A DNA stretch of 64,000 nucleotides. Source: Yuukianura sp. NJ FZ-2021 (Eukaryota). The notes under the pieces are model-generated. The model had not been told where the DNA came from. It did not search any database and saw only the letters and a program-made list of their open reading frames with translations. The stretch lies in assembly GCA_046563655.1 (NCBI GenBank), contig CM102285.1, positions 3,782,001-3,846,000 of the forward strand, in the 5' to 3' direction. The translations under genes were made by a program, and so were the position numbers. Below, in pieces: positions 14,477-61,727 of this stretch (positions are counted from its first letter, which is position 1; each line of letters starts with the position of its first letter).

Positions 14477-16108
14477 TCTTTTTTATTTCAACTTTTTATA
14501 CATTGATATATCTATAATAATATTTAATTTTATTTCAGTTTTCATTTTTTTTTGTTATTGTGTATAATTTTAGCTACAGTTCGGCTATTTCATTATAAAA
14601 CTAATTTTTACAATTGATTTTTTTAAATGGAATCTCAAAACCGTATTGTACTTGTACACAAAATATTTTGAAAATCAAAACAATCATTATTTTTTTTTGT
14701 TGCTAGTTTGACTTAAAAAGAAAATAACGTGATATATTGATTGGCATTTCCAACAAAAAAAAATTACCGCCTACTAGGTAGTTACCTTAGACGATTACAT
14801 TTTACCAGTACAAATATTATGTACAAATAAGGTTCTGCAGTATTGTCTTGTCTATTATGTAAATATACTAGCAAGTAAAACCACGAGAACCCTGAAAAAC
14901 CTACAATACGAGAAAAGACTTAAGGTTGTGTTTGTAATAAGAAATAAATTTAGCCGAATCCAATTAAAGTTAGTTCAGAGAGACAGGGTCTCATCTGATT
15001 GCGTTGGTTTAATTACGAAGTTTTGCGTCGGTATGATGTTAACATTGAACTAGAGTAGTTTAAGATCATTTGACCGTCGAACAGTGATTGCCGCTTACTT
15101 TTTTTTCCTGTTATGGTTTCAAAATCACATTTACAAGCTTACGAATAACGTTTTTTTTTTAAAACAAAAAACAAACAATTTTCAACTCAACTTGAGCGTG
15201 ATAACGTGCAAACGTTATTTTGCTGAGCATTCCATTTGGAGAAACAATTTTAGCGCAATCACATTAGCTATTTTTCCGTTGGTACCCTAACCCTATAATC
15301 CGGTTGAAATAAAAATCCGGTACCTTGTAATGTTAAACAATTAGGGAAATGTGGTTTACCGCCAACTTGATAAAAATTGAAACAAACAAGGAACTTGATT
15401 TTTCTTATCCATAAATAAAACAGGTTTTGCACAGAACTTATGAAAGTAGCAAGAGATATTCCTGCCAGTGACATCAACACCTTGGGCATGTTTGTATTTT
15501 AATTTCAACGTTTGCGTTAAAACGATGAAATCAAATTCTGGATCTTTAACCCAGACGGAGCAGAACTAGGTGACCTTGGATGAGGAGAGTAAATCACCCC
15601 CACTGATTCCATGCTGCCATAATGGCATTATCACATGAAATGTCATGTCATAAATATACCTGGGACAACTTGGGATTAGCCGGACCAAAATTGCCTTACG
15701 CCCTTCATCACACTTTAAAGTAGTACAAAAAGTGGTTTCAAATTGTAGTTTCGAGTGCTTTTGGTTGTCGTCCTTAGCCTTAGTTAGGTTATAGACGTAG
15801 ACGTAAGACCAGTTGACCTTTGCCTATAGTTTGACCTATCACCCGCATACAGTTGGCCTTACTGCTGGGTTTTAAACGAAAACATTCAACACTGCAATTC
15901 CTTGAAATTCACAGCTTATGTGCTCCGCCGATTGTCGGACAGACCGACATACAAAGCATAACCGCAAACTAGCTTTCACCGTACTTATACTAATCCAATC
16001 TGGTGGAGAATTCTGCCAACGTATAAGACCTACCAACCGCTCCTTGGAGTCATTCAGTTGGTTACATACATTTGTCAAACCGACAAAGCACTAATAAGTC
16101 AAATAAAA

Positions 16109-16585
16109 ATGGCCATCGATTTTACAAAAAAGTTGTCCGCTGCTGATGTGGAAGAAATCACGCGAATTTTTCGGTCAATGCCGACATTTGCAAACGAGTC
16201 CATTTCAATTGTCGATGCGGTTGAATTTTACGAGAAAATTGGGTGGGAGCGGACCCAAGAGCAAATCGCAGCCTACAACTCATACATGGAAAAATTCTTC
16301 GGCGGAAGGTATCCATTGAAGTTGTTTCAAGATGGAATTTCGGAGGTGCACGACACCGCAGGAATTATGCTGGTCACAGCTCGGGCGTATGACACCAACG
16401 GAGATGGGTTCATCAGTGAAGATGAATTTGAAGAATTGAAGAAAATTTTTGTGGCACATGACCCCCGCTTGAAGGAAATGGATTTTGCACAATTCGTAAA
16501 GGAAGCTGACGCTAATCGTGATGGCCGCATCTCAGTCCAAGAGTTTGCGGATTGGATCCGAACTTCATTGAATATCGCGATGTGA
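16109..16585 (+). CDS. Calmodulin-like EF-hand protein, paralogue 1 (intronless)
   Basis: 158 aa; canonical EF loops DTNGDGFISEDE and DANRDGRISVQE; N-lobe loops degenerate; AATAAA downstream. Confidence 0.9.
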   Translation: MAIDFTKKLSAADVEEITRIFRSMPTFANESISIVDAVEFYEKIGWERTQEQIAAYNSYMEKFFGGRYPLKLFQDGISEVHDTAGIMLVTARAYDTNGDGFISEDEFEELKKIFVAHDPRLKEMDFAQFVKEADANRDGRISVQEFADWIRTSLNIAM

Positions 16586-16887
16586 TCATCTCAACTGAAA
16601 ACATCGATATATGTCATGAAATTTTAGCGTGCTAAAATTTTACTTCTGCGAAATAAATCTGAATAAAAATAAAAAGCACCACACAAAAACGTTGTTTGTT
16701 ACTGATCCACCTGGAAAACGCATGCTCGAATTGTGTGACCCACAACCCGATATGTTAAAAAAATACTTGAACTCTCCTCAACCTCTCATGGAATGTCGCA
16801 TCATTGCACGATTTACAACTGGTTTTATTTTTAGTAATATTTGTTTTTAACATTTGTTTAAGCTCATGTTATTTTACTCCTGCTCCT

Positions 16888-17007
16888 GCCAAGGTCCATA
16901 CCACGTTGAAAGCACCAGTTCTCGTCCGATCACTGAAGTTAAGCAACGTCGGGCCCGGTTAGTACTTGGATGGGTGACCGCCTGGGAACCCCGGGTGCTC
17001 TTGGCAT
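16888..17007 (+). rRNA. 5S rRNA: 5S ribosomal RNA, copy 2 (identical to copy 1)
   Basis: Same sequence as 14357-14476, followed by TTCTTTTTT; flanks are homologous to those of copy 1. Confidence 0.97.
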
Positions 17008-18274
17008 TCTTTTTTATTTCAAAGTTTTGTATATTGATATATCTATAATAATAACATTCAATTTTATTTCGGTTTTCATTATTTTTCTTGTGTATAATTT
17101 TAGAAACAGTTCGGCAATTTCATTGTAAGTACCTAATTTTCACAATTGATTTTAAATAGTTTGGGATCTCAAAATTCACGGCCTGGAATCACTGAGTGCT
17201 TTGAACGACTGCTTTAATTTAATCAAGTTAAACAATTTACATAGGTGATAAGTTTAATACAATTTATGATAATTTTTCATGACATTTCAACATTTTACAC
17301 TACATGTTTTAGTTTATTGAATAATTTAAATAATAAACAATTTTAAATAAATAATAATTTGAATTTAAAATGAAATCTATATACACGGCAGATAAGAGGT
17401 GTAAATGAGAAACGTTTGGAAACTGACGTCACAGATTTGAAATCGACCAATCGGGTGGCAAGGGGGGAACATAGTCGGGACGTGCTAAGTTCTATACTTT
17501 CTACTTTCTATAAATTCTAAGAATGGTTTGAAACGCAAAGGCCCTATTACAAATTATTTACAAGTAAAACCACGAGAACTCCGAAACCCTGTGAATACGA
17601 GAAACCAATGGAGGAGAGCGTGGTTTAATAAGAAATAAAACTCGAAACGAAAACAACTAATTCCAACTGAAAATTGTTTTTTTTTGTTTTATTTTAATTG
17701 AACTAAAACTTAATTACTAAAACCTACATCATCCAGATCGTCATCCGATTAACTTTGGTCAATGTCAACCACCGAAATGTGGTTGACATTGAATTAGAGT
17801 GAGTTAAAGATTATTTCACCTACGAGCAACGCTTGAGATTTAGTTTTTGTTGCTTAATTTACTTACTTTTTGACTATTTACTATTTCATTCCTATACTAT
17901 TACTATATTATTCACTATTTTACTATTATATGTTACTACTTTTTTTCTCACTTACTAATCAACTAACTTTCTCAATGTTTACTTTTTATGTTACCGGTTT
18001 CAAAATCACAAATCTCCGAATTTGTATTTTTTTAATCACTTATAGCCCAATTAAAACACGCGCATGTGATGAAGTTGAAAAAAAGTTACACCAATTCAAA
18101 GTAAATCTTAAGGTACTTTTTGCCATCCATTCCAATTAGAGATTCAATTTTGTCGCGATCGATACAAATAGTGACTTAAAGGTTGGGTAATTAGTTAATT
18201 AATTCAGTCATTAATTTGTTGCTAATGGGTAATTGGCAAGTTCGTAGACAATTCACGACCCTATTCAAACTTTT

Positions 18275-18351
18275 ATTACGTAATGAATCGAATCTGATGG
18301 AGAATTATGCTGTCACCATATAAAACCTAGCAACAGTTCTTGTCATTCAGT
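18275..18351 (+). promoter_or_regulatory. Core promoter of EF-hand paralogue 2 (ATTACGTAAT palindrome, TATA, Inr)
   Basis: ATTACGTAAT 18275-18284, TATAAAA 18319-18325, arthropod-type Inr TCAGT 18347-18351; the same layout precedes paralogues 3 and 4. Confidence 0.55.
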
Positions 18352-18401
18352 GAGTTGGTTACATACATTTGTCAAAGCAACAAAGCACAAACTGAAATAA
18401 A

Positions 18402-18875
18402 ATGCCCATCGATTTTACAAAAAAGTTGTCGGCTGCTGATGTCGAAGAGATCAAACGAACATTTCGGTCAATGCCGACATTTAACGAGTCCATTGCAAAA
18501 GCTGATGTGGTTGAATTTTTCAAGAAAATTGGATGGGAAAGGAATGAAGAGCAACTCGAAGCGTACAACGCTTACATGGAGAAATTCTGGGGTGGACGGT
18601 GTGTGTTGCACTTGTATCTAGAAGGAATGTCGGATCCACAAGATACGGCAGGAACTCTGCTGGTCGCCGCCAGGGCATATGACACCAATGGAGATGGATT
18701 TATCAGTGAGGATGAATTTGAAGAACTGAAGAAAGCTTTTTTGGCACATGACCCCAGATTGAAGGAAGTGGATTTTGCAAAATTCACAGAGGAAGCGGAC
18801 ACTGACCGTGATGGCCGAATCTCAGTCCAGGAGTTAGCAGATTGGATCCGAACTACGTTGAAGATCGAGAAGTGA
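18402..18875 (+). CDS. Calmodulin-like EF-hand protein, paralogue 2 (intronless)
   Basis: 157 aa; EF loops DTNGDGFISEDE and DTDRDGRISVQE. Confidence 0.9.
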   Translation: MPIDFTKKLSAADVEEIKRTFRSMPTFNESIAKADVVEFFKKIGWERNEEQLEAYNAYMEKFWGGRCVLHLYLEGMSDPQDTAGTLLVAARAYDTNGDGFISEDEFEELKKAFLAHDPRLKEVDFAKFTEEADTDRDGRISVQELADWIRTTLKIEK

Positions 18876-20760
18876 CCATTTCAACCGAAAACCGATTTAT
18901 GTCTTAAAATTTTAATGTGTTAAAATTTTAATTTGTCAGTAAAGTAAATCTGCATTATAAAAAAAACGTAGAATGGTTTGTTCTTGCTCCACCATGTTAG
19001 TTAAAGAAATTGTCATCAATGCAGTGTTAAACAAGGTCCTAAAACAGTTTTTTTCCTCGGAGCTGAGGCTGGCGCATACCCTGGAAACCGGAAGTCAGAG
19101 CGCCGATAAAGTTGACGAATGTAGGTACAGCAGGGTTCATGTTACGAATGTCGTGGAATGAGGCACAACACGGCAAACTTTACGTAACGCCCTGGACCGT
19201 CCCGTCCAAGGAGTGCTCTGAACGACTCGTTTAAATGAATTAAGTGAAACAATTTACATATGTGATAAGTTTAATTCAGTATGTGAGAACTTTTTATGAC
19301 GTTATAAATTTTTTTTTATACATAGAACATTTCACACTAGATCTCTCATGTTATGGAATAATGTAAGTAATTAATAATTTTAAATAAAAAAAAGTTCAAT
19401 AAAAAATTATTTTTTTCATGTTATATTTTTGACTTTAACGAAACAGTGACATGTTCATCATGAACATGAACACGTTACTTATTATTTTATTTTTTGTTTT
19501 GCTATTGTTTCTTTAAAACATAAAGGTGGTATGAACATGACTGATTTATAATTCGACAACATTTGTATCCCATGTATTTAATGTAGGCAATTACTTTCAT
19601 CCTAGAATGGCTATGACGCCATTTGTTGGTAAGTGCAAATTAGGTTTTCTAGTTATAAGGAGTTCTAAATCATTTGTAGAATTTAAAGAAAGTATAGAAT
19701 TCACGTCGAGGCATGACGTACTTTTTAAGGTTGGATTAGGTTGCAAAATTGATAAACACAAGTGCTGTAAATGAGAAAGGTTTGGAAACTGACGTCAGAG
19801 ATTTCAAATCGACCATTTACTGGAGCCGTAACAAAACGGGTGGCAGGAGGTGAAAATAGGCGGGACTTGCTAAATTCTATCGTTTTTATAAATGGTTTGA
19901 AACACAAACTCCCTATTATATGTTACAGTACATCCAACGAAAAATTTGAAACCATGTGAATGTGAGAAACAGCTCCATAAGGGCGTGGTTTATAAGAAGT
20001 AAAACTCGAAACGAAACCAACTAATTCCAGAATTGCAGAGTAATTTTTTGTCTTCTTTTTAATTAGATTAAAATTTGGTTACTAAAACCTACATCGTCCA
20101 GTTGGTCATCTGATTATCTTTTGTTTACGCAGTTAGTCATCGAAATGTGGTTGACATTGAATTAGAGTTAAAAATTATTTCACCTTCGAGCAATGCAATG
20201 ATTTAGTTTTTGTAATATTACTTGATTTGTTAATTTACTTACTTTTTTTTCTTACTTACTAATCAACTTATTTTCTTCATGTTTACTTTTTATGCTACCG
20301 CGAGTTCAAAATCACAAAAATGTCCGGATTTGTATTTTTTCCAAACATTTATAGTCCAATTAAAACATGAGCGTGATGATGTTTAACGGTACGGGTGGAT
20401 ATCGGTTGCAAAAATTTTTCAGATTTTCGCGCGTTAAAAGACGTTACACCAATTTAAAATAACTCTTAACGTACTTTTTGTCATCTATTCCTATTAGAGA
20501 TCCAATTTTGTCACGATCGATCTAACCAAATAGTGACTTAAAGATTGCGTAATTAATTAATTAATTAATTTTAATTTGTTGCTAATGGGTAATTGGCAAG
20601 TTCGTAGACAATGAACGACCCTATTCAAACTATTATTACGTAATGAGTCGAATCTGCTAGGGAATTATCCATCAACGTATAAAATCATCCGACAGTTCTT
20701 GCCAGTCAGTGAGTTGGTTACATACATTTGTCAAAGCAACAAAGCACGAACGGAAATAAA

Positions 20761-21234
20761 ATGGCCATCGATTTTACAAAAAAGTTGTCGGCTGCTGATG
20801 TCGAAGAGATCAAACGAACATTTCGGTCAATGCCGACATTTAACGAGTCCATTGCAAAAGCTGATGTGGTTGAATTTTTCAAGAAAATTGGATGGGAAAG
20901 GAATGAAGAGCAACTCGCTGCGTACAACGCCTACATGGAGAAATTCTTGGGGGGAAGGTGTCTGTTGCACTTGTTTCTAGAAGGACTGTCGGATGCACAA
21001 GATACGGCAGGAACTATGCTGGTCGCCGCCAGGGCGTATGACACCAACGGAGATGGGTTCATCAGTGAGGATGAATTCGAAGAACTGAAGAAAACTCTTG
21101 CGGCACATGACCCCAGATTGAAGGAAGTGGATTTTACACAATTCGTTGAGGAAGCGGACACTGACCGTGATGGCCGAATCTCAGTCCAGGAGTTTGCGGA
21201 TTGGATCCGAACTTCATTGAAGATTACAATGTAA
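20761..21234 (+). CDS. Calmodulin-like EF-hand protein, paralogue 3 (intronless)
   Basis: 157 aa from the ATG homologous to the other copies; EF loops DTNGDGFISEDE and DTDRDGRISVQE. Confidence 0.9.
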   Translation: MAIDFTKKLSAADVEEIKRTFRSMPTFNESIAKADVVEFFKKIGWERNEEQLAAYNAYMEKFLGGRCLLHLFLEGLSDAQDTAGTMLVAARAYDTNGDGFISEDEFEELKKTLAAHDPRLKEVDFTQFVEEADTDRDGRISVQEFADWIRTSLKITM

Positions 21235-23496
21235 TCATCTTTACCGAGGAAATCCATGCAGTTATGTCTTAAAATTTTAATGTGTTAAAATTTTAATTCA
21301 TCAATAGGTTGAATCTGTATTATAAAAAAAACGTTACTATATAATAGTTTGTTCTTGCTCCACCATGCTAGTTAAACAAATTCTTATTAAATGAAATGAA
21401 GTTTACTTGTAAGACTACTTTACTGTCCTTACAGTTTTTTCCTCTGTGCTAAGCCTGGCGTTTACCTGGAAACCAATGGGCCATAACTGAACAATGTAGA
21501 TACAGTATGGTTCAGCGTAATAATGGAATGAGGTACAGTACGGTAAATTTTACGTAATGAACTTTGACCTCCCAATATTAAAAATTGTTAAATATTAATG
21601 CTAATTCAGCATCGTCTACTTACAGTGTTAAAATTGTTGAAATTAATCAAATAAAATCTTTGGCTACCAAACTCCTAATTTAATAAAACTTGAGTTAGTC
21701 TAATATACACAATGTTTTTAAAGACTGCTAACCAGAACTATAGTAGTGTTACTCCTCCTGTCGTCTCGATTCTTACTACTGTAGTGCTTCAAATGAATAA
21801 TAACTTGATGAATAATTTTTTGAATATTTAAAGTTATAGTTATAAAAGTATCACAAAAAGCAAACCATTACCAGTATTACTGTAAACAGTGGTTGGGTTA
21901 GGAAAGCACAGGGTATAGCACGTAAAAGTAAACGCCATAAATTCGTAGATAGCATAGAACCGAAAGAATTTTGGTAAATGGGCGGTCGCCTTTAAGCCAC
22001 TTGTCCCCTTGTTCACATACATAAAGTGACTTCATGTAGTCCGCCGTCAATGTTCTGTCTACAGCTTTTGTTGGCTAAAAAGTAAATTGATAATAATAAA
22101 AAAGGAATAATAAATGACAAAAATAACATACAAAGATTTAATAAAATGTTTCACCACCTTAAGTTACGTACTACTTTTAATTTTCTTTCTTGTTAATTAC
22201 TTTCACTACAGCAAAGCTCTGACGATATTTGGTGGTAAGGGGCAAACTAGATTCTTTAGTATTAGGGAGTTTGCTTTATAAATCATTTATAAAATTTACA
22301 GAAAGTACAGAATTTATTGTGAGGAGTGACGTGAATTTTCAAAGTTAGACTTAGGTTTTAATCTTAGGTTGGGCTAGGTTCCAAAATTTTATATACACAG
22401 TAAATACGCGCTGCACATGAGAAAAGTTTGGAAACTGAAGTCAAACATTTGAAATCGACCAATCCCGGAAACCGTAACAAAATGGGTGGGAGGAGTGAAA
22501 AGAGGTGGGACTTGATAGATTCTATACTTTCTATAAATTCTATAAATGATTTGGAACAAAAACGCCCTATTACAAGTTACAAGTATAACCACGAGAACTC
22601 GGGCACCCTGGGAATGCGAGAAATCGGTCGCGGAGGGCTAAGAAATAAATTAATTCGAAACGAAACCAATTAATTCCAGTTAAAACTTTTTTTGTCTTTT
22701 TTTTTTAAATTTGATTCGGATTTAATTATTAAAACCTACATCGTCCAGTTGGCCATCTGATTACGTTTGGTTTACGTGTTTAGTCATCCAAATGAGGGTG
22801 GCCGAATTAGAGTAGTTAAAGATTATTTTACGTTTGAACGATGCTTGAAATTTAGTTTCTTTAATGTTACTTAATTTCCTTACTCATTTTTCTTACTTCC
22901 TAATTAACTTACTTTCTTAATGTTTACTTTTTATTTACCGGTTTCAAAATCACAAATGTCCGGATTTGTATTTTTTAAAAATCATTTATAGCCCAATTAA
23001 AACACGAGCGTGATGAGAGGTTTAAAGCCATGGATGGATATAGGTAAGTAGCAAAATTATCTCAGATGCTCGCGCATTTACAACGGGTTTCGCCAATTCA
23101 AAATAACTCTTAATGTACTTTTTGTCATCAATTCCAATTAAAGATCCAATTTTGTCGCGATCGATGCAAATAATGACCTAAAGTTTGGGTAGTTAATTAA
23201 TTAATTCATTAACTTGTTGCCAATGGGTAATTTTGTCCTCCAATCCAATTTTGTCGCGATACAAATGGTGACTTAAAGTTAATTAATTAATTAATTAATT
23301 TGTTGCTAATGGGTAATGGGCAAGTTGGCGCACAATGCTCGACCCTATTCAAAATATTATTACGTAATTAGAGAATTACGCAGTTCTCTTCTAGGGAATT
23401 ATGCTGTCAACATATAAAACCATCCGACAGTTCCTGACATTCAGTTACTTGGTTTACATACATTTCCTAAAGCAACAAAGCACGAACGGAAATAAA

Positions 23497-23967
23497 ATGC
23501 CCATCGATTTTACCAAAAAGTTGTCGGCTGCTGATGTGGAAGAAATCAAGCGAATTTTTCGGTCAATGCCGACATTTAGCGAGTCCATTGCAATTTCTGA
23601 TGCGGCTGAATTCTGCGAGAAAATTGGTTGGAAGCGGAATCAAGAGCAACTCGCAGCGAACAACGCCTACATGGAAAAATTCGCAGGTGGAAGGTATCCA
23701 TTGAAGTTGTTTCTACAAGGAATTACGGCGGTACACGATACGGCAGAAGCTATATTGGTCGCAGCCAGAGCGTATGACACCAACGGGGATGGGTTCATCA
23801 GTGAGGATGAATTCGAAGAACTGAAGAAAACTTTTGTTGCACATGATCCCAGATTGAAGGAAGTGGATTTTGCAAAATTCGTCCAGGAAGCGGACACTAA
23901 CAAGGATGGCCGCATCTCAGTCTACGAGCTTGCGGATTGGATCCGAACTTCATTGAAGATGAAGTGA
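23497..23967 (+). CDS. Calmodulin-like EF-hand protein, paralogue 4 (intronless)
   Basis: 156 aa from the homologous ATG; EF loops DTNGDGFISEDE and DTNKDGRISVYE. Confidence 0.9.
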   Translation: MPIDFTKKLSAADVEEIKRIFRSMPTFSESIAISDAAEFCEKIGWKRNQEQLAANNAYMEKFAGGRYPLKLFLQGITAVHDTAEAILVAARAYDTNGDGFISEDEFEELKKTFVAHDPRLKEVDFAKFVQEADTNKDGRISVYELADWIRTSLKMK

Positions 23968-28069: not shown

Positions 28070-29563
28070 TTAAAAATAATTTTTAGGCGAACTGCCGTTT
28101 TGATGCGGTAGTCCGTAGGTCATGCTAGGTGGCTTCGGGATACTATACGACTGAGCTTGTGGTGGTGCACTGTACAGTGGGTTTCCATAAACAACCGATG
28201 GTGTTTGTGGTAGTCCATATGTATTCTGCACTGGTGCACCGTATGTTGGAGACGGCGGCGAATATGTGTTCTGGACTGGTGTACCGTATGTTTGAGGCGG
28301 TGGCGAATATGTGTTCTGGACTGGTGTACCGTATGTCTGGGACGGAGGCATATAAGTGTTCTGCATTGGCACGCCGTAAGTCTGTGATGGGAGCGAATAT
28401 GTGTTCTGGACTGGTTGCGTTGGCGGCAAATATGTATTTTGGAGTTGTGGTGGTGGACCGTACGAATTAGACGGTTTACTCATAACTTCGTAGCTTGGAT
28501 TTGGTTTCGGAAGGGGTGCGTAGTATACTGGCGGTGGCTGCGGTCTGTACTGAACTTGCGGTGGCTGCGCATAAGAATCCTTGGTGTATGAAGCTGGAAT
28601 TGGTGCCGGGGCACCATAGGCTGATGTTGGTGCTGAATAGACCGGAACTGCTGGCGCTCCATACTGCTGTACCGGTGTTGATGCTGGTGCAGAATATACG
28701 GAAACTGGTGGCGCTCCATACTGCTGCATTGGTGCTGATGTTGGCAGAGGAGCAGAATACTGCTGAATAGCAGGGGCATACTGCGGCATGATTGGTGCAG
28801 ACTCATACCCTCCAGAACCTGGTGGTTTGTAGCGGATAAAGTACACTTCTGGTTTTGAAGCCGGAGTTGGTGCCAATTCTGGAAAAGTGTAAGGTTTAGG
28901 CGGGTCTGGTTTCCTAACCAAGACATAGACTAGTGTTTTCTGTTCCGGAGGTGGTGGGATATAGAACTCCGGTGGCATAATTGGGGGTGGGGCTGGAGCC
29001 TTAATGAAAATAATTTTGTAATGCTTTTCTCGTTTCAGGGACTGGGGAGGTTTTGTAGGAGTTGGGTAGAATTCGGCTTCCGGCGGTGGAACATGAATCG
29101 AAATTTGCTTTTTGATGAAAAATTCTTTGTCTTCCGGATATCCAGGAAGTCCGTATCCCCCGGGAGCCGGTGTCGGTGGTGGGCCATAACTTGGTGGCGC
29201 AGCGTAGCCTGTTTGTGGAGGTGAGGCATAGCCTTGCGCAGCAAATGTGTCAAATTGAGCTCCTCTTTCTCCCGCCGAAGCCAGCAATTGGTTGATGTCA
29301 ATTCCGTCTGGAGTGTTGTCTTGGTATGGCCTTCCTACTGAGACTGTGCTGTAGGATTGCGGTGCTGGTGGCTCTGACCGTGACGTTCCAAGGAGGACCC
29401 CAAACACCTAAAAAAATTGTATTAATTATCAATTTTCAAAAAAAAAATCTGATTTGAAGAAGAAGTATTTTAAGAACAAAATATTTGTGAAAAAAGTATT
29501 TAAAAAAGTTTAAAACTGACAAAAATGAAAGCGTCTCACCAAGAATATAAAAAGAATTCTCAT
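28070..29563 (-). CDS. Tweedle-family (DUF243) cuticular protein with a Pro/Tyr-rich repetitive tail
   Basis: Exon 1 29540-29563 (MRILFIFL) splices in phase 0 to 29407, forming a signal peptide. Tweedle blocks KQISIHVPP, KHYKIIFIKAP, KTLVYVLVRKP, KPEVYFIRYK; (QNTYSPPSQTYG)-like repeats. Confidence 0.9.
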
Positions 29564-42208: not shown

Positions 42209-43805
42209 TCAAACTGGAAATAGTTTGAACTTCATTTTCTGCTCAGTCACTGTCCCAAAATATACATAGTTTCTTAGACAAGTATGGATCACTTCGGCGT
42301 CAAATTCCGTGACAAACTGCTTTACAAATACTTTTATATTGTTCAACGAAATGTATTTGCCTGGACAAGCATGAACTCCTTTGGACCACACAAAAACGGA
42401 GTTGGGGTCGACTGACTCTATGTTTTCTTCAGCTAAGAATCTTTCAGGATTGTACTGTTGGGTCTGCGCAAAACCGTTTTCATCTAGCTCTGTTTGAAGG
42501 AAGAATCCTGGGATTGTCACGACGTCCACGTCACCCACAAAGTAACGGCCAAGTACCGCCTCTTTGTGGGGTACACGTGAAATTACACCCGCACTAACAT
42601 TTAACCGAAGAGCTTCTATGACACAAGCATGGAGGAGTTTGTTCCGTAAAGTCTCATCGATACTTGCGCCCCGCAATTCCATACGTAAACGGTACCAAAG
42701 ATCTGGTCGGTACGTAAGTTCCTTTAGAGTATGACTTATTGACGCCGCTGGAACAGAAGTTAGCGCGACATGGATAAATAATAAAGTGGGGCAAATTTTT
42801 TCCAGAAACAATTTCCCATTTCCGTCGGCATCCATTGATGGAAAGTCCACAGTTTTTCGAATCAAGACAGAGTCATTTTTTTCTGGGTTTTCAACGTATT
42901 TGCGCACAATCGAAATCATGCCTTCAATGTACTTTTGTCTCCAGTGAATTACGATTCGCTGAAAAGTGTTGTCTATGAGTTTCTTTGGAAAAATCTTTCT
43001 CAGGTAGACTGTTATTGTCATCCAGTAGTAAAAAGAATCGTAAGCTTTTGATATTGCTGGTGTAATGTCAACTGCAAACGTAGCTTTAAAGATTGCTGCA
43101 ACATACGTTCTGCGCATAACGTCTTGCATGTCTATAACTCCAATTTTTTCTTTAACAATCTTTCTTTTCAAGTCTTGTAATGTTCTCCCTATTTCTTCTG
43201 TAACGGAGTGCAATAATTCTGACCTGTGCGCAACAAACGAACTTTTGATTAACTCCGTCGTAAGCGTTGGGTTTTTGCGCATCCCGTCGCCGTCCACAAA
43301 ACATTGAACTACACCGGAATGAGCCATGAACTTGTTAAATGAAAGTTGAGATTCGCCGGCAATGAAGTACTCCTTGATCAAGTCTCGCGTGCAAACAACA
43401 GTCATTCGATGTAAACCGAGTTTGATGGTGAATATTTTCCCATAACGCTTGTAGCATGAGAACAAGAAGCGTTTGGGGTCAAGGGTCATGTGACCCAGAT
43501 GACCAATTAATGGTATCCAGGAAGGTACCGTAGGAGCGATCAGCAATTCAGAGTTTCTGTCGCTCTTAAGATTTTGCCTTTGTTGTAGCCGGTTGGCGAA
43601 GATTAACATTAATGTTAACGATACTATCAGCAGAATATCAGAATACCTGGAAATGAGAAGAGAAAGTGAGGTCTAATGCCTAACAAGTATCTATTCCATC
43701 ATACGCATTAATTAAATGATAATTAATATACTAGATTAATTAAACGCGAAATTGTTTTATGTTTCACCACGATGGCGTTGAAGCAAAGGTGCTGGTATAA
43801 TCCAT
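42209..43805 (-). CDS. Cytochrome P450, atypical (CYP51/CYP7-like N-terminus)
   Basis: Exon 1 43768-43805 splices in phase 2 to exon 2 (43646-42209), giving a TM anchor. Pro-rich APTVPSWIPLIGH, ExxR (IEALRL), PERF (YNPERFL), heme motif WSKGVHACPG; TATA-like element at ~43908. Confidence 0.92.
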
Positions 43806-46305: not shown

Positions 46306-47871
46306 GTGAGCGGAAAGATAGAGTCAAAAATGTTTACACGTCCAGGTTTAGGAGAAAATGCAAAATTGGGAGATTTATATGACTGCCGGCGTGATAGTTT
46401 CATTGGAAAACAAATTTTTGTGACAGAAGAGCTTCCGGATGTGCTGCGTACTGTAACGTACAAACAGTGTCTTAACAAAAGCGTATTACAAGGTGACAAA
46501 ATTTCTGACAAATTGAAATACATGGGTATAAACGAATTCATGGGTGTAAACGTTCTTGCCGGACTCATTCCACGAGAAGGAGTTGGAAAATATTTACAAA
46601 CGCAAAAACGTTACGCAAGAAACGAAAGTATTACTGGCAAGTATGAAGCAATATATAAAAGTGAAAAAATCAACATTTACGAACCAACGCTCCCGAATAT
46701 CATCGACATTGATGGACTTAAAGACTCCGGAGCAACTCATTTTTTGGCGGAAATTACATGGGGAGCCACTCTTCTTATAACAACGACATACGAAAATGGA
46801 AATAATGAAGAGAAACAAGACATTCTTTCAGCGTTTCAGAAATCTTTCGATAGATTCTACTTGGGCACAGAGAAATTGAATCAAAGTCGGCGTAGGAGGT
46901 CCAAAACTGTTCGAAATACTTCCCTTCGTCTGGTGAGTGACGCACTACCTGAAAGTCCAGTGTCAGTGAGACATCACGAAGTTCAAACTTACATTCACAG
47001 TTTTTTCACTAGCCCAGCCATTGTTGCCGACGGAAAACAAGTCACTTACTGTCTTGTTCCATTGATTTTTCTAAAGGATCAACATGGCTTGGAAATAAAA
47101 ACCAACACAAGCAGTCAATTGAGTTCGCAAATTGCTTTGTCCATACTGGAACTGTTTGATGAAATTGAAGCTGGAAAACTGTTAATGAATGAATTTGATG
47201 ACGACAATGCGGATTCTGAACATACCTTGACTAGAGAAGCCATTTGCAAGATTCAAGATTTGGAATCTAAGTTTTGGCGAGATTTTGAAATCCTCGTCCG
47301 TCAGATTAGCCTTGGAGGAAAATGTGCTGCTGAACTTGAAAAAGTTGTTGAACATTATGAACATATGTATTTCTCGCCATTGATGGTCATTTGTGACTTT
47401 CCAAAAACAGGAATGAGGGAAAAAATTGAAGTGTACCGTATTTTGCGTCAACTCAATGTGATATTTATTTCACTTCAAGAACCTCGTACCGCTCCTGATT
47501 TTGCGTTCAGATTCACTGAATTTATATACAAAGACAACAAAAATACGTACGTCTTCATTGCAGGACGTGAGATAGTCGCCAGGAAGATTGACTATTATTT
47601 CTCCAACATTATATGGAAATACAAAATAGCAAAAGAATACAAACGTCGGCGAAATAAAAATCAAATGTTTTTGTCTCTGATCAAAGGGGATCATGATAAA
47701 TCAAGATTTATTTATCTCAATCCTGATATAACTTTTGTCGGAGGTGAAATATCGCAAATCCGCCAGTACAAGGATTACAAATTGCTTGTCAAAGACGTCT
47801 ATAGAAATCATCGTAGGATTTTCTCTGCCTCTCCCCGTCCAAACAAAGTTTTGGCAAGGTTCACGTTTTAA
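46306..47871 (+). CDS. Stonustoxin/neoverrucotoxin-like protein (SNTX MACPF/CDC-like N-terminal domain)
   Basis: RPGLGENAKLGDLYDCRRDSFIG resembles the SNTX LGR...LGMLYDCRRD motif; also VLAGLI...GVGKYL and ATHFLAEITWGA (ATHVV..I.YGA). The start is either ATG 46330 or a small upstream exon 46132-46211. Confidence 0.75.
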   Translation: MSGKIESKMFTRPGLGENAKLGDLYDCRRDSFIGKQIFVTEELPDVLRTVTYKQCLNKSVLQGDKISDKLKYMGINEFMGVNVLAGLIPREGVGKYLQTQKRYARNESITGKYEAIYKSEKINIYEPTLPNIIDIDGLKDSGATHFLAEITWGATLLITTTYENGNNEEKQDILSAFQKSFDRFYLGTEKLNQSRRRRSKTVRNTSLRLVSDALPESPVSVRHHEVQTYIHSFFTSPAIVADGKQVTYCLVPLIFLKDQHGLEIKTNTSSQLSSQIALSILELFDEIEAGKLLMNEFDDDNADSEHTLTREAICKIQDLESKFWRDFEILVRQISLGGKCAAELEKVVEHYEHMYFSPLMVICDFPKTGMREKIEVYRILRQLNVIFISLQEPRTAPDFAFRFTEFIYKDNKNTYVFIAGREIVARKIDYYFSNIIWKYKIAKEYKRRRNKNQMFLSLIKGDHDKSRFIYLNPDITFVGGEISQIRQYKDYKLLVKDVYRNHRRIFSASPRPNKVLARFTF

Positions 47872-53921: not shown

Positions 53922-56900
53922 TTAGTTAATTATGACTCCCTGCTCTTCTAAAAATTTGGACAGTATAGTTTCCTTGTGCATCAGCAAATCCCGCGTTGTT
54001 CCAAAATCTTTGACTTTGCCCTCTTCCATGACTAAGGCGTAGTCACACCTTCGAATTGTATCGTAGGAGTTGGTAACTATTAGAGTCGTGCGCCCCTGAA
54101 CTACTTTCGACATCGCGTTAGCCAGAGCCTAGTAGAAAATCAAATTTTAGGGCATCAAAAACGGTTCAATGCCATTTCAACGAATGAATTACCACGAAGT
54201 GAATTACCACAAAAGTCCAATTAGCACGAAAGTTGAACGACATTGCAGTTTAAAATTTAAAAATTTGAAAATTAAAATAAAATTTTAAAATATAACGAAT
54301 ATAATTTTTTTAAAGTATTCGAAACATAAAAAATCGCTACGCCGCCTTGATTTAAAAATAAAAGTAATTTACACAAAACCCTCTATTCTATTCTATTATT
54401 ATCATTAGTATTCTATTTACCTTGCACAAAACCAATTTTTTTGCGAGGAATGGGAAGTTGTGGGGAGGGGGCTTGGTTAAGAAAAACAATACACAATAGA
54501 ATGCTAAGTTTGACTGTAATAACTTGGTCAACAAAATACTAAATCTGTATTTAGCATCTTTGTTGCCGTGGTGCGCGTCACGTTGCTTTCTGCTTCATAT
54601 TGGAGTTTATTGCTGAAGAAAAAGTACTGTTTTAGTCATTGTTGTAAATCCGGAAGCATAGTAGGTTGACTGTGTATTGTATTATTTGGAAGGGTCAACT
54701 TTTGTGGTAATGGGACTTTTGTGGTAATGGGACTTTCGTGGTAATTGGTTTCGGAGTGATTAAACTTTCGTGATAATTGGTTTCGGGGAAATTTATTCGT
54801 GGTAATTCACTTCGTGGTAATTCATTCGATGAAATGGCGTGCTCCTATCACAAACACTTTGAAAAAAAGTTATCCGGTCATATTTATGAAATCGGAAACC
54901 TGCTCTTGATCTGCATCTAAGGTCCTGGTAGGATCATCAAGCAACAAAATTGGCGGTTTGCTGAAATAATTGCCAGAATTTAGTCAATTTTTTGCTTTTT
55001 ATCAAAATTTTTTAGCTGCTTTTAGCAGGTTTGCTAACCTAAGCTGCTTTTTCAATTAGAAAATTTATATTTCTTTTTCAATGTTTGTAATTTTGAGTCA
55101 CCTGATAATTGCTCGTGCGACAGCAACGACATATCGTTGTGCTGGATTCAAATTTTTGCCGTTCTCACCACACCTTGTCGCGAGTTGCTGAAATTTTCAA
55201 ATTTCCACTTCAAATTTAATTTTCTGAAAAAAAAATTAAATAAAACTATGACTAACTTCCGGAAATTCTTCGGCAATGAATTTTGCGTTAGCACTTTCAA
55301 TAGCTTCGTTAATGAGAACTTCGAGGTCAGTCTCATTGATGGTGTCATCACGGTAACCATAGGCTATGTTTTTTCTTATGGAAGTGTCAAATAAGTTAGG
55401 TTCTTGCGGAACATAGCCAAAGTTCTTTCTCAGATGACTCAAATTGTAGTCTTTGATGTTAATGTCATCTATCAACTATGAAAACAACCACGTAAAAACA
55501 TAACAGACGCAAAAACATAAATACATAAAAGTGCTTATGTAAACTTGAAACTCAAAACAAGACTTTTACTTACAACTTCCCCTTTTCTGACTTCGTAAAA
55601 TCGTTGGAGTAAAAAGAAAAGAGTTGATTTGCCGCTTGACGCTGGTCCAACTGTAAATTGAAAAAAGAAACACAACATTAAAATCGATAACCTTTATGTA
55701 CGTCTGAATTTTTCTTTTGAAGAAAAAATTTGCTTTTTTACCAATTGCCACAATACTTCCCGCCGGAACTACAAAATTGACCATTTCGAGAACATTGACG
55801 TCTCGCACAGTAGCGTACTTGAATGAAACCATTTTGAATTCTATTTTGCCCTTGATCTCTTGTTTACTTCCGTTTTCATCGTAGGGGTCAACTTGTGATT
55901 TGAGGTCAATTAAATTGAAAATGGCGCAACATGCTAACCGGGCTTTAAAAAGCTCTGGAAGGAAACTAGTCATTTGACCAGTTGTCAAATTTCCAAAGGT
56001 CAGCACAAAGAAAATCCTAAAAAAAGATAACACAACATTACAAATTTATAATTTTCATATAATTAAATTATAAATATGATGAAAAATATACTGTTTTATG
56101 TTTTCACTGCAATCTATTATCTACTATTAGTACTAATGCAGAGATGGCTCGAGAAATAATATATAAATATATACTATGTGTAATATTTACACATGGCTTA
56201 CGTAAATACATGAGAGACTGGCAGTGTTCCAATCCTAATGAGTTCTGCGCCGATTCTACATGCTGCTGCAAATGTTAAAAATACAAGGCATTCCGAGGCT
56301 GCGTACACCAGAGCATACCAACCTGCTCTACGGTAACCTTCACTAAAATATGGAATATAATTATTTAATATAATTAAAATAATTAAAGGGCATAACAAAT
56401 AACATTTATACATAATACATTACTTAAGAATTCCAGACTTACTGTAGTGCTGGGTACAGAGTAAACTCTGTTTGACGACAAATTGTGTAGGCTTGTGAAG
56501 AAGCATGTATGTTTTCGATTCCAGTAGTTATGCAATTTGTAAGCTGGTAAAAAACAAATTTTAAAATTTTAAAAGTTTTCAAAAATTTTCTTTCAAACTG
56601 CAAATTTCGAAGTTATATTAAATTTTCATACATCGACTAGCCTTCTGCGTACAGCGGTTAATTTGAAATGTGATTTTTTCAAAATCCAGCGAATCAGGAA
56701 AAAGCATGTGATAAGCATCGGAATTGTCAGAGACGCCACTAACGCCACTTGCCAGCTGAAAAACGCCGTAACGCCCAGTGCTACAAGCATCGTTACGGCA
56801 TAACTTATCGCAATCCCCAACCTTGTACCAGCGGCCTATTAAAAAAATCCCGCCAAATTCAAAAATTCAAAATTTTTCTTAATGTCTAAAATAGCTTCAC

Positions 56901-59900
56901 CGATCGAATGGTGGGTATATCGGATCCTATTCTGGCGTAGAGCTCTGCGGTTGAGTTTTCGTTGCAGTCGAACCAGCTGATTGGTTGGCGCAAAATCGAA
57001 CGGTACGTGGCTATACGCAGACTCGAACCGAGTTTTTCGGCAAATACGCCGATAAATACCGTTCGGACGCAGTATGCAAGTCCGGCAAATACCGAAAGTC
57101 CGGCTAGCACTCCCACCCAGAAAATACCGGACGAAATCAGTTTTTCTCTAGCTCCAATGAACATCTAAATAAAAATAGACAGTGTAGTTAAACATAGTTT
57201 TCAAAATTTCTTTGGGAAGTTTTTTTTTTTGATCATTTCTCTTCTTACGTCCAGAATTTGGCCGAGGAACAAAGGCAAAGCCGGTATGACTAATCCGCTG
57301 ACTAGACATCCGAACAGACCGAAGTACAGCAGTTTCTTGGACTGCTTGGGCACTACGCTTAAGACATGCGCAATAGATGGAACTTGTTGAGCAGACGTAT
57401 TGGATGCCGGTTTGTTGGGTATCGGATCGAATATCGGACAAGGAACGGAACAAGCAGCTGGCATTGTCGGTCCATGCTGAATCAAACCTTCTTTGACCAA
57501 CATTCGGTAGTACTCGCCCTTCTTTTCCATAAGCTCTGCATCACTACCTTCCTCTATAACTTCTCCATTCTATGTAAAACAAGCATTATTATTTATTTCA
57601 TTATATATTTTGAACATAAAATATTATTAAAATATATTGTGCATTTCATATATTACATTTAAATATTTTAGTATACTTAAACAGTTTAATATTCTCTTAC
57701 CTTGAAGACAAAAATTTTGTGTGTTTTGCGTAGAACAGCAACCCTTTTATCAAGAACCATTGTTGAACGAGTACGTCTGCACCGTACTAAATTTTCCAAA
57801 ATTTGATCCGCAATGTAGGTTGGTAGAGTTGACATTACTTCATGCAGAATCAGGATTTTGGGATTTGAAATTATGAATTTGGCAATAAAAATTTTGATTC
57901 TGAAACAAATTTTCAAAAAAAAAATTCAATTACTACTATATCAATACTAAATTTAATTGACTTTACCTAAGATGTTTCGGGAACACCTTCTCACCAGGCA
58001 ATACTCCCTTTCCCATGTACCCCTATGAATTACATTGTAATGCTGTACATAATATAAATCGTGTTTTTACATAATTATGTAATTACGTCATTATGTAATG
58101 ACATCATTTTTTGCAGTATAAAAATATAAAAATAAATCATTTCGTATTATAATGTAGGTGTTAAATAAAATAGTCAATTTACGCCGGGACGGAGTGTGAT
58201 TTCGTCATGTACGAGAGCCATTTTGGCTGCTTCAATGACGTCATGCATTGTAACGTTTTTGTTGAAGGAACGAATGTTCTCAAAAATGGAAGTGTTGTAC
58301 AGAGTCTACAAAATTCAAATTTGAAATTTTTGAATTCAAAAGAAACTTCTTTAAAAAACTTTAAATAATCACAAAGTTCCCTGTACAGTTGTGTGAACAT
58401 GTGTGAACACTTACGGTATTTTGATCCACGATGGAAATTTGTCCTCGGACCCATCGAACATTCTGAAGGATAAGTATATACATAATATGTAATAATTATG
58501 CATGGATATTGCAAATATGGTACGGTTTGGTACCAGTGACGTAATGCCGTTTTTGTCAAATTTCACTTCACCGGACTGTGGATCGTACAGTCGAAGCATC
58601 AACCTCACTAACGTACTTTTTTCAGAACATCCCGCTCCAAAAATTCCTGTTTTATTTTCAAAAAAGCAACAACAATCAAAACTTTGAAGAAAACTCGACG
58701 GGTCAAAGGTCAAATGTCATTACCGAAAAGTCCTCTGCCGGGAATTTCAAGGTTAAAGTCATTGAAAATCGGTTTCTGATCTTTGCCGGGATAAGCAAAT
58801 GTTACGTTGCTGAAACAAATGTTTCCGGAAAAGTCACGTGGGTCTAAACCTGAAAGTATCACAATGCTCCAGCTGCAAAACTAATATTTCAAGTCGAAGC
58901 ACGCCAATACATAAAAAAAGACATCAACTGAAAAGACATCTACACAAAAGACGCTAAATATAAAGATATCAACAAGGCAAACACATCAACAATGAAAACA
59001 CATCAACCCGAAACACATCAAGTCAAAAGATATCAACAATGCAAACACATCAACCCAAAAGACTTCAACAGAAATTTTATTTTTTCATATAACAATTTCA
59101 TTTCCTGCGAAACTAAAATTTGAGAATTCTTTTTTTCAAAATTTTGAAAAAAAGTCTGGCTATAGTATCACAGATGGCAATTCTGGTTTTTTTTTTGTAT
59201 CTTTTGTTTGACGTTTTGTATCTTTTCTGTTGATGTCTTTTCATTGTTAATGTGTCTGCATTGTTGATGTCTTTTGGGTTGATGTGTTTGCATTGTTTGT
59301 GCCTTCTTACTTGCTGTCTTTTGTGTTGATGTCTTTTTTTTTATCTATTGGCATTGGCATGGACCCTTTCATGTAATTTAAATACATAGCAAATACACAT
59401 TAATAAATACAATATAAATAAATAATAATAAATATGTATACAAAATATATATTTATTATAAATGCGTAGCATATATTTTAATATAGCATGTAAAATGTGT
59501 TACCTGCGTTACTGTAAGGGTCAATGTCAGGAACAGAGTTGAGCACAGTTCCGAGTAGTTTGAAAGAAGCGTAAGAGGTGGCGATGACATCGACGTTCGG
59601 CAAAACCGAAAAAACCGCAAAAACCGAAATCGTGAGACTGAAGAATACCGTGTAAATTTCTCCTGGTGTAATAGCACCTTGGTCGAGTAAGTTGACCGAA
59701 TACCAGAGTGCGACTGCGTAGAAGGCGTAGATCAAAAAGTACATTCCACCTACACTTACTCCAGAAATGACATCTAGAGATTCCGCTGCGTTAGAACTCC
59801 GCAGAACTGCGTCTTTGTAGCGCTCAACTTCCCGCTGTTCAGCCGAAAACGCAGTCACCGTCCGAACGTCATTTAAAACTTCACTAGCAATTTTTCCCGC

Positions 59901-61727
59901 TTTGTTATTTTCTTTGTGTGCCTCGGTCGTCGATTTGACAATTTTCTGTTACATTAAATGTTGTAAATTTCAAAAAAAAAAATCAAATATCAAATTTCAA
60001 AATTAAAAAAAAAAACAAATTTTCAAAATTTTGAAATCTTACATTCCAAATCAGAATAATTTTGGTGAGGATGAACGGAGTAGAAGCTAGCATCACGATA
60101 GTTAACTTTGCATTAACAAGAAATCCAATTCCCGCGCCAAAAATTGCTATTACTAGATACTCAATCACAAGCACAAATTTTTGACCAACTCCATCTCGAA
60201 AGCGTTCACAGTCACTGTCAAATTTGAGCACAATTTTAAACAACCTTCAAAAGATTCTAACTTTTTTGAAAAAACTTACTCTGCAATTTTTAGAACAAGA
60301 TTTCCCGCCGAATGGCGGCTGAACCACGCCATTTCCTGCCTCTGTAGCTGATAAATAAATTTTTGCCGAACTCTGTACAACTGATTTTCAGCAACCCACT
60401 CCCAAATGATGGTCTAAGTTTGTGAAAACAATATTTTATGTAACATATCATGTAATATATTATGTAATCTTAAGTAATATCAGGCATTATGTAACATTAC
60501 GTAATTTTATGCAATATATCACATAATATCATGTATTATGTAATATATGATATAACAAGATATTGCATAATACAAAATAAAATGAGTAATACGTTGACGT
60601 ATATGAAAAGTAGAAACTAACTTGAAAAAACCGGCAACAAAAACGGCGATTCCAATGTACACATAGTAGATAGAAAACTCGTCGGCGTAATCTGCAAATT
60701 CAGCGGACGTTTCCCGCCCCGTAATGTTGTACAAAGTTAAATTTCCAAAATACCCGCCCCCTTTGACAGACTCCGCATCCGGAATTATAGATGCGTTGAT
60801 AGCAGGATTGACTTGGGTGGTAAATTTGGAAAGTAAGTATAACGTTTTTTGCCCAACGTCTCCAATGTGCTTATCTCTTGAATGTGAAGAGTTCAACCTG
60901 TTTCGAATTTTCTAAAATTTTCAAAATTTTATTTTGTTTTTTCTTAATTTTTTTCTTTCTAGGTAAGATTTGAATATAAACGTACTAGTAGCTCCTGCTG
61001 ATTGATGTAGGCGTTTGAGAATTTTCCAAAAAGACTATTTGTCAAACAAAATTACAATTTTGCTAAATTTCAGTTTAAAAAAGGAATGTTTGGGTAGGTA
61101 CATACATTGCTAAAATTGGGAAGCTGGCGGCATGAATCACAGTAAAAATGAGTCCCACGAATAGTAAGAATTTGTCTAGAGCTGAAGTGTATTCAAACTG
61201 TACGAAAAAAAAGTTATCCTAGGTTAAAAAGTTAACTAGATCGTAGTTAATAGTTAATCAACTTAACTAACCTAAAGCTTAGCATTTTATTAGAAGGCGT
61301 ACCAATTTCGACAGTTTTTTAAACAAATCCTGCGCCAATTGTTTTGCAGTGGCACCTTCCAAATTTGCATCTTCTTCGTCATCTTCTGGTTCTTCATAGT
61401 AGCTGTTATTTTCAAACCAATTTTTAAAACAGAGGCAGATTAACGTTAATCCTATGTTAAGCAGCTTAGTCACGCCGTATTAGCATGACGGAGTAAAAAC
61501 ATTTTGTATGATACATTTATTTTTAATTTAACATGAGCTATTTCACTTAATTTAACATGTTAATATAAAAATTCCTGTAAAGTATTTTACTAATTGTCTT
61601 CCTCCATATGCAGTTTTGTAGTTTCGCTTGGATTGAATTTTGCATTTTGAATTCTCAGTTGTTCCAGCAATGGTTGAAAATCCGGATTCAAAATGAACTT
61701 TGTACACCAAGACGCTAGTGAATCCAT
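53922..61727 (-). CDS. ABCB (P-glycoprotein/MDR-like) full transporter, TMD-NBD-TMD-NBD, with degenerate ATPase motifs
   Basis: Multi-exon. Motifs include QEMAWF, RTVTAFSAEQREVERY, YAVALWY, ILRQPISWFD, IKGKIEFKMVSFKY, GYVPQEPNLFDTSIRKNIAYG and GRTTLIV. Putative ATG at 61727; the NBD exons I checked join in frame. Confidence 0.9.
54162..54845. mobile_element. Foldback/MITE in the last ABCB intron
   Basis: 40-bp inverted repeat GCCATTTCAACGAATGAATTACCACGAAGTGAATTACCAC (from 54171) vs 54799-54838 (1 mismatch); GTGGTAAT subrepeats. Confidence 0.8.
58903..59352. mobile_element. Foldback/MITE in an ABCB intron
   Basis: GCCAATACATAAAAAAAGACATCAAC ... GTTGATGTCTTTTTTTTTATCTATTGGC; ACATCAAC subrepeats on the left, GTTGATGT on the right. 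Confidence 0.75.

Follow-up and report, generated by a model that had tools for sequence, protein, structure and literature searches.

The 64,000-nucleotide (nt) stretch analyzed here, hereafter the window (positions 3,782,001 to 3,846,000 of contig CM102285.1, assembly GCA_046563655.1, from Yuukianura sp. NJ FZ-2021; coordinates below count from its first letter), carries on its minus strand a full ATP-binding cassette (ABC) transporter gene of the ABCB type in which neither of the two ATP sites has a consensus composition. Homology to ABC transporters is carried by a run of short open frames on the minus strand from ∼61.7 kb to ∼53.9 kb, in a window whose DNA is AT-rich (33 to 45% G+C). We assembled the gene model from sequence and homology, by enumerating all GT-AG pairs that keep the homologous frames open and then joining them. 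The resulting gene runs from 61727 to 53922, with 25 exons and a 4038-nt coding sequence (CDS) of 1346 codons that starts at an inferred ATG at 61727 and ends with a TAA at 53924 to 53922; all 24 introns (65 to 771 nt) are of the GT-AG type, all 48 splice dinucleotides are intact, and the spliced CDS has no internal stop. End-to-end alignment with 45 homologues gives the domain order TMD1-NBD1-TMD2-NBD2 on one polypeptide (TMD, transmembrane domain; NBD, nucleotide-binding domain), hydropathy gives six plus six membrane segments, and the first extracellular loop is long, with four N-x-S/T sequons. The initial annotation had placed an ABCB transporter at 53922 to 58850, a span that is a real part of the gene but covers it only from NBD1 to the end. 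The GT-AG junctions and stop-free NBD exons that it described hold for the complete model, including the TMD exons, which were checked for frameshifts and stops and are open throughout; the ABCB identity itself is borne out by the domain order, by the membrane domain PF00664 in both halves, and by matches to ABCB structures.

The exons, all on the minus strand, follow the expected succession of structural elements. Exon 0 (61591 to 61727) carries the inferred ATG and encodes a 45-residue N-terminal extension without homology support; through its donor gtaaaa, it is the sole in-frame ATG exon to connect with exon 1. Exon 1 (61303 to 61402) encodes an acidic N-terminal segment, exon 2 (61106 to 61197) the first transmembrane helix (TM1, placed by tblastn to a homologue and by hydropathy), exon 3 (60986 to 61034) the start of extracellular loop 1, and exon 4 (60618 to 60911) this long loop, with its sequons, and TM2. 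Exon 5 (60280 to 60413, tblastn) corresponds to intracellular loop 1, exon 6 (60043 to 60214, tblastn and hydropathy) to TM3-TM4, and exon 7 (59504 to 59945) to the second half of TMD1 with TM5-TM6. In the second half of the gene, exon 14 (57249 to 57569) encodes the end of NBD1, the linker and TM7, exon 15 (56901 to 57164) TM8 and intracellular loop 3, exon 16 (56632 to 56835) TM9-TM10, exon 17 (56443 to 56543) intracellular loop 4, exon 18 (56202 to 56342) TM11, as judged from hydropathy, and exon 19 (55742 to 56016) TM12 and the start of NBD2. Most introns measure 65 to 200 nt; intron 7 reaches 654 nt because a foldback element lies inside it (58903 to 59352, unstranded, ∼450 nt), which consists of 15- to 16-nt subrepeats in inverted orientation and contains 17 inverted-repeat pairs with arms of up to 76 nt and 84% complementarity. 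Intron 23, the longest (54129 to 54899, 771 nt), contains short direct and inverted repeated units by eye and is possibly the site of another inserted repeat element.

Nine open reading frame (ORF) pieces were scanned against Pfam. Two pieces, each a single TMD exon, match ABC_membrane (PF00664), at 70.1 bits for exon 7 in TMD1 and 44.5 bits for exon 15 in TMD2; two others give weak ABC_tran scores (24 and 19.1 bits, below the cutoff of 25 bits), and five have no match. The NBD exon pieces nevertheless match the NBDs of ABCB proteins in solved structures at E values of 7e-10 and 2e-15, and the TMD1 exon (exon 7) matches 49 distinct sequences among solved structures, of which ABCB1 ranks highest (E 8e-29) and ABCB4, ABCB11 and plant ABCBs come next; the structure of nematode PGP-1 is matched at E 2e-15. 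Both these top matches and the named neighbors, which include cricket Mdr65, stink-bug ABCB1 and Steinernema ABCBs, put the gene closer to ABCB than to the other ABC subfamilies. A HMMER scan with the TMD1 exon over 1.84 billion representatives returned 1631 matches at E≤1e-3, of which only one was closer than 1e-30, a 152-residue unannotated fragment (P0001) with 55% identity, and the best full-length homologues are only 27 to 32% identical over TMD1, with ∼32% for the best. Separate homologue searches yielded 948 candidates for the TMD1 exon, none of them significant, and no candidate for the NBD1 Walker B exon or the last exon. A quick maximum-likelihood search on 72 rows of the TMD1 exon groups the gene with P0001 and with a metagenome contig (L001) in a clade with a Shimodaira-Hasegawa-like approximate likelihood ratio test (SH-aLRT) value of 98, joined next by P0057, again at 98. 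The neighbors of this clade are insect and nematode ABCBs, with which it forms a looser grouping (SH-aLRT 93) whose inner forks are unresolved. The sequence thus points to a real, fast-evolving P-glycoprotein-type ABCB paralogue in a small divergent clade otherwise known from three unannotated fragments, all 48 to 60% identical to it in the TMD1 exon.

We located the ATP-site motifs by aligning the sequence to solved ABCB structures with HMMER and to the 45 best-ranked of 84 full-length homologues with MAFFT; this reproduced all the motif readings of the initial annotation in both NBDs. NBD1 begins in exon 8 (58724 to 58849), where the A-loop Tyr is kept (FAYP). The Walker A motif in exon 9 (58534 to 58646) reads GAGCSEKST, with Glu in place of the Gly before the Lys; the Q-loop in exon 10 (58415 to 58462) keeps its Gln (VDQ), with QEP replaced by QNT. 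Exon 11 (58183 to 58305) encodes the helical subdomain, and exon 12 (57967 to 58022) covers the X-loop, which is lost, and the signature position, where FPKHL stands for LSGGQ, all five residues being replaced. Exon 13 (57701 to 57899), placed by HMMER to ABCB4 and P-glycoprotein structures, contributes the Walker B motif ILILHE (Mg-binding Asp to His, Glu kept), the D-loop STLP (Asp to Pro) and the H-loop VLDKR, in which the switch His is Lys. In NBD2, the A-loop Tyr is kept in exon 19, the Walker A motif of exon 20 (55574 to 55650) is canonical (GPASSGKST), and so is the Q-loop VPQEP of exon 21 (55257 to 55475), the piece that matches ABCB structures at E 2e-15. Exon 22 (55102 to 55187) keeps the X-loop (GE.G, here CGENG) and has LNPAQ as signature, exon 23 (54900 to 54960) has the Walker B motif ILLLDD (catalytic Glu to Asp) and the D-loop RTLD, and exon 24 (53925 to 54128) has an H-loop VTNS, with Asn for the switch His, and the C terminus.

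One ATP site is composed of one NBD's Walker A and B motifs and its A-, Q- and H-loops, together with the signature and X-loop that the other NBD supplies, as described in the excerpts of the review PMC7756269 used here. Read in this way, site 1 (Walker A, Walker B and H-loop of NBD1, signature of NBD2) is degenerate in every element (Gly to Glu, Asp to His, His to Lys, partner signature LNPAQ), and site 2 (Walker A, Walker B, Q-loop and H-loop of NBD2, signature of NBD1) keeps its binding elements and has lost the catalytic Glu (to Asp), the switch His (to Asn) and the partner signature (FPKHL). Neither of the two sites is a consensus site, and the proposal made from the first inspection, that both lack residues treated as needed for hydrolysis, agrees with what the excerpted review of ABC exporters says of these residues (PMC7756269).

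The signature exon required a choice between two readings. Besides 58022 to 57967, the 56-nt exon 12 has a second in-frame reading at 58042 to 57987; we favor the former because its donor is better (gtaaag compared to gtgttc) and because it matches L001 more closely, sharing 6 residues out of 18 and 26 bases out of 56, compared to 2 and 18, respectively, for the other reading. This is also the reading from which FPKHL had originally been derived. A tblastn search with four canonical ABCBs under permissive settings (304 high-scoring segment pairs [HSPs]) revealed no canonical NBD exon in the introns: among the HSPs with E≤1, six span modeled exons and three lie elsewhere at E 0.44 to 0.65, none indicating an extra NBD exon. 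No second ABCB copy was found within the window.

Near-invariant columns of the alignment (≥90% conserved) were counted as broken wherever a sequence departs from the majority residue. On this measure, 34 of 65 such columns in NBD1 and 17 of 56 in NBD2 are broken in the gene, compared to a homologue median of 1 (n=45), a deviation that is far beyond chance. A few homologues are outliers too, with up to 38 broken columns in NBD1 and with 49, 39 and 26 in NBD2; some of these are probably faulty gene models, and two (P0002 and P0003) show missing or duplicated segments. In NBD2, losses affect 12 of 30 motif columns and 5 of 26 other conserved columns, a difference that is not significant (p=0.15); with 21 of 26 conserved nonmotif columns retained, compared to 18 of 30 motif columns, this domain looks like a fold still under constraint with its catalytic residues altered.

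The closest relative with NBD1 data is L001, a metagenome contig of 1921 nt and the only relative from a scan with 503 pattern matches. The equivalents of exons 7 to 12 can be read from it; the contig ends before the rest of NBD1 and NBD2. Exons 8 to 12 have identical lengths (126, 113, 48, 123 and 56 nt) and phases in the two genes, with GT-AG borders, and there is no insertion or deletion (indel) across these 466 nt of NBD1 coding sequence. Residue identity is 60% in the TMD1 exon and 45%, 45%, 69%, 41% and 33% in exons 8 to 12, respectively. The NBD1 of L001 has a canonical Walker A motif (GPGSSGKT), the Q-loop Gln and the signature LSIGQ. Of the 34 near-invariant columns covered by L001, 9 deviate in both sequences, 6 in the window gene alone and 3 in L001 alone; at a 50% threshold, 24 NBD1 deviations are shared, 17 belong to the window gene alone and 4 to L001 alone (binomial p=0.007). 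From this mixture of shared and lineage-specific deviations it follows that NBD1 was already departing from consensus in the clade and that the window lineage has gone further, and the retention of Walker A and LSIGQ in L001 implies that the double degeneracy is lineage specific or only partly shared. Two features of the L001 introns can be added: the intron after the Q-loop exon measures ∼450 nt compared to 109 nt in the window gene, and the first donor is nonconsensus (gttcga), so that weak GTT donors are seemingly tolerated in this group.

Several lines of evidence bear on whether this gene has been decaying without constraint. Relative to L001, identity by codon position is 0.80 at second, 0.66 at first and 0.40 at third positions in TMD1, and 0.74, 0.65 and 0.41, respectively, in NBD1, the third positions being near random. 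The rate of nonsynonymous change (dN) is 0.32 in TMD1 and 0.45 in NBD1; synonymous change (dS) is saturated, and the pairwise dN/dS of ∼0.2 to 0.34, calculated with this saturated dS, spans both lineages rather than this branch alone. When random substitutions were simulated in the CDS, 22% of the runs stayed free of stops at 1% divergence, 4% at 2%, and none of 1500 at 5%, with stops numbering 7.3 on average at 5% and 13.9 at 10%; this simulation counts stops only and leaves out indels and the 48 splice dinucleotides. Hallmarks of a pseudogene (stops, frameshifts or lost splice sites) are absent from the 1346 codons and 24 introns of the model, in which exon 0 and the junctions of exons 3/4 and 16 were chosen. 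Long neutral decay is thus excluded, which speaks against a pseudogene that has drifted. Silencing is compatible with these data only if it is very recent, at less than ∼1 to 2% divergence, and would then not account for the motif losses. Since half of the near-invariant NBD1 residues have been lost and the frame is still open, the motifs must have been lost while selection guarded the frame. The open frame, the intact splice dinucleotides, the L001-identical exons and the neutral simulation therefore support the view, already put forward in the initial annotation, of a maintained gene rather than a pseudogene.

How unusual this combination is can be judged from work on other ABC exporters. 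The excerpts of PMC7756269 map natural degeneracy in ABC exporters to site 1 only, with Glu to Asp as its usual mark, and none of the exporters covered there lacks a consensus ATP site altogether. The same excerpts report that ABCB1 with both catalytic Glu residues changed to Asp has residual ATPase activity only, and that ABCC1 with Asn or Gln in the site 2 H-loop transports like the wild type. Making the second site degenerate as well by engineering left the plant ABCD transporter CTS without function, according to the excerpts of PMC4652930. Open-licence full texts and preprints yielded no natural ABC exporter in which both sites are degenerate, a search that did not extend to the supplementary tables of arthropod ABC inventories, where genes of this clade may already be listed.

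The sequence documents the integrity of the gene, its motif states and its clade membership, and it excludes long neutral decay; the loss of ATPase activity, the retained capacity for ATP binding and the kind of function are our inferences. The product is probably no longer an ordinary ATP-driven pump, and the reading that we prefer, at a probability of roughly 0.45, is that of a maintained, nonpumping membrane protein derived from an ABCB exporter, which may sense, or be stabilized by, ATP at NBD2. Site 1 probably cannot bind MgATP, because both the Walker A Gly and the Walker B Asp are replaced (by Glu and His); site 2 may still bind ATP at NBD2, with turnover expected to be poor or nil, and a normal hydrolysis-driven pump cycle would then be unable to run. 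Selection would have kept the gene for a role resting on the membrane domains and the overall fold, candidates being a facilitator that senses nucleotide or works independently of it, a protein resembling a channel, and a regulatory membrane protein; the initial annotation had proposed a regulator, sensor or channel.

A number of observations weigh against this reading. The divergence is not confined to the NBDs: the end branch of the gene in the TMD1 tree is 0.58, the branches of the two nearest relatives being 0.16 and 0.19, and judged from these branches the whole protein, TMDs included, is evolving about three times faster than they are. Identity to the 45 homologues is 26% in TMD1 and 22% in TMD2 (medians of 32% and 29% for pairs of homologues) and 33% in NBD1 and 37% in NBD2 (median of 53% for homologue pairs in each case). 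On the scale of homologue pairs, the TMDs stand at the 5th percentile and the NBDs far below it; at 1.45, the ratio of NBD to TMD identity lies within what such pairs show (1st percentile, 1.29). The idea of conserved TMDs with decay restricted to the NBDs was for this reason rejected and holds only partly. Within NBD1, losses affect 18 of 31 motif columns and 16 of 34 other conserved columns (p=0.46), so that the idea of decay in the catalytic motifs only was likewise rejected, and the loss looks like a general relaxation of a length-conserved domain. Furthermore, the double degeneracy has been observed in one sequence, and the only relative with NBD1 data keeps Walker A and LSIGQ. As to the gene model, its least secure parts are the exon 3/4 junction (ambiguous, with several in-frame GT-AG options), the donor of exon 16 (picked from three in-frame options) and exon 0, where the chosen junctions could mask a defect; several donors are weak (gtttct at exon 4, gtttcc at exon 23, ahead of the 771-nt intron, and gttagt and gtgact); and a combination of the acceptor at 58042 with the donor at 57967, read by hand from the coordinates, would shift the frame.

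A more far-reaching proposal, which we regard as possible though on the doubtful side, is that the gene represents a naturally ATPase-dead P-glycoprotein kept by selection, that is, an asymmetric ABCB pump of an arthropod lineage that subsequently lost its hydrolytic site as well. The scaffold would in that case have become an ATP-binding, nonhydrolyzing or nucleotide-independent channel, passive facilitator, receptor or regulatory subunit, an independent, ABCB-based parallel to the steps taken by CFTR and SUR, at an earlier or more extreme stage.

An alternative reading is that of an ordinary asymmetric ATP-driven exporter, in which site 1 is structural and site 2 hydrolyzes slowly despite its Asp, its Asn and its odd partner signature. 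In NBD2, Walker A is kept, as are the Asp of Walker B, the Q-loop, the GE.G of the X-loop, the Asp of the D-loop and the Tyr of the A-loop, along with most of the conserved nonmotif columns (21/26), and the pattern in L001 fits an ancestor with one working site. The excerpted data on ABCC1, with its wild-type-like transport, and on the residual ATPase of the doubly substituted ABCB1 point in the same direction (PMC7756269), and the tolerance of His to Asn in ABCC1 makes a slow residual ATPase activity at site 2 conceivable. What renders such a pump unlikely is that three elements of site 2 are altered together, namely, Glu to Asp, His to Asn, and an NBD1 signature replaced at all five residues with the X-loop lost as well; natural degeneracy has been placed in site 1 only (PMC7756269, in excerpt), and the second engineered degenerate site in CTS meant loss of function (PMC4652930, in excerpt).

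It is likewise improbable that we are looking at a dying gene, an unprocessed pseudogene or silenced locus whose frame is still unhit and on which selection has been relaxed by a redundant ABCB copy elsewhere. The approximately threefold acceleration in TMD1, the 17 compared to 4 NBD1 deviations relative to L001, and the loss of NBD1 conserved columns alike inside and outside motifs are what one would expect of such a gene, as are some of the weak donors and the two enlarged introns, at least one of them enlarged through a repeat. However, neutral loss of about half of the near-invariant NBD1 residues predicts many stops and none is present, exons 8 to 12 have no indels relative to L001, the 48 splice dinucleotides are intact, and the very recent silencing that alone would be compatible (<∼1 to 2% divergence) leaves the motif losses unexplained. 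Finally, an annotation artifact, in which the true mRNA would use other exons or junctions, such as mutually exclusive canonical NBD exons, gains something from a model built on sequence and homology alone, from the two in-frame readings of exon 12 and from the alternative junctions at exons 0, 3/4 and 16, yet is very improbable given that tblastn with four canonical ABCBs gave no HSP with E≤1 for an extra NBD exon, that most altered motifs lie inside exons and distant from junctions, that neither reading of exon 12 contains LSGGQ, and that the NBD1 exon structure is identical to that of L001.

Set beside known systems, the protein resembles P-glycoprotein/MDR-type transporters (ABCB1, ABCB4 and the insect Mdr49/50/65-type proteins) in its single chain, its 6+6 helices and its sequon-rich first extracellular loop, and differs from them in that both ATP sites lack consensus residues and in its NBD identity of 33 to 37%, compared to ∼53% for homologue pairs. 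Among its own relatives, L001, P0001 and P0057 share its clade, but L001 keeps Walker A and LSIGQ and has an end branch about one-third as long as that of the window gene. CFTR and SUR, which are members of ABCC and not of ABCB, are cases in which the exporter scaffold has been reused for gating or regulation with a nonhydrolytic ATP-binding site, one hydrolytic site being kept; the likeness to them is conceptual only, and no sequence feature of the window gene suggests a pore or a partner channel. With asymmetric exporters in general (ABCB11, TAP1/TAP2, ABCC1, CFTR, SUR, TM287/288 and Pdr5) the gene shares a site 1 that is degenerate in the usual pattern. In these proteins, however, a consensus site 2 powers the cycle, whereas here site 2 has Asp for Glu and Asn for His and lacks its partner signature; in addition, NBD1 is missing the Asp of Walker B that binds Mg and one Gly of Walker A. 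The signature of Pdr5, quoted as LNVEQ in the excerpts of PMC7756269, resembles the LNPAQ found here.

If the gene is expressed and under selection, a maintained, nonpumping ABCB would indicate that the exporter fold can persist for a job without ATP turnover, would make a natural case for studying how a degenerate site behaves by itself, and would caution against taking each arthropod "P-glycoprotein" gene for an efflux pump of drugs or pesticides. Should it instead be a slow pump or a silenced gene, its peculiarities would amount to ordinary paralogue decay.

Several other genes were recognized in the window. About 10 kb from the ABCB gene, at 42209 to 43672 on the minus strand, a 487-residue frame contains a full-length cytochrome P450 domain (104 bits) with no apparent intron. 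At 46306 to 47871 on the plus strand, a 521-residue, apparently intronless ORF encodes a stonustoxin-type MACPF/CDC-like domain (54.8 bits to PF24674) and resembles genes for pore-forming proteins. Farther away, a Pro/Tyr/Gln-rich ORF of 445 residues at 28070 to 29407 (minus strand) carries a DUF243 domain (Tweedle-type cuticle protein, 63.8 bits), a family whose distribution makes an arthropod the probable source of the DNA, and four tandem, apparently intronless ORFs of ∼160 to 200 residues at 15962 to 23967 (plus strand) encode closely similar EF-hand calcium-binding proteins, the EF-hand matches in Pfam having been obtained for the copy at 18396 to 18875. Toward the start of the window, the C-terminal half of a serpin lies at 5674 to 6516 (plus strand, 81.9 bits) downstream of long Ser/Thr/Pro-rich frames at 3218 to 5286 (plus strand); the two may belong to a single serpin with a large low-complexity N-terminal extension.

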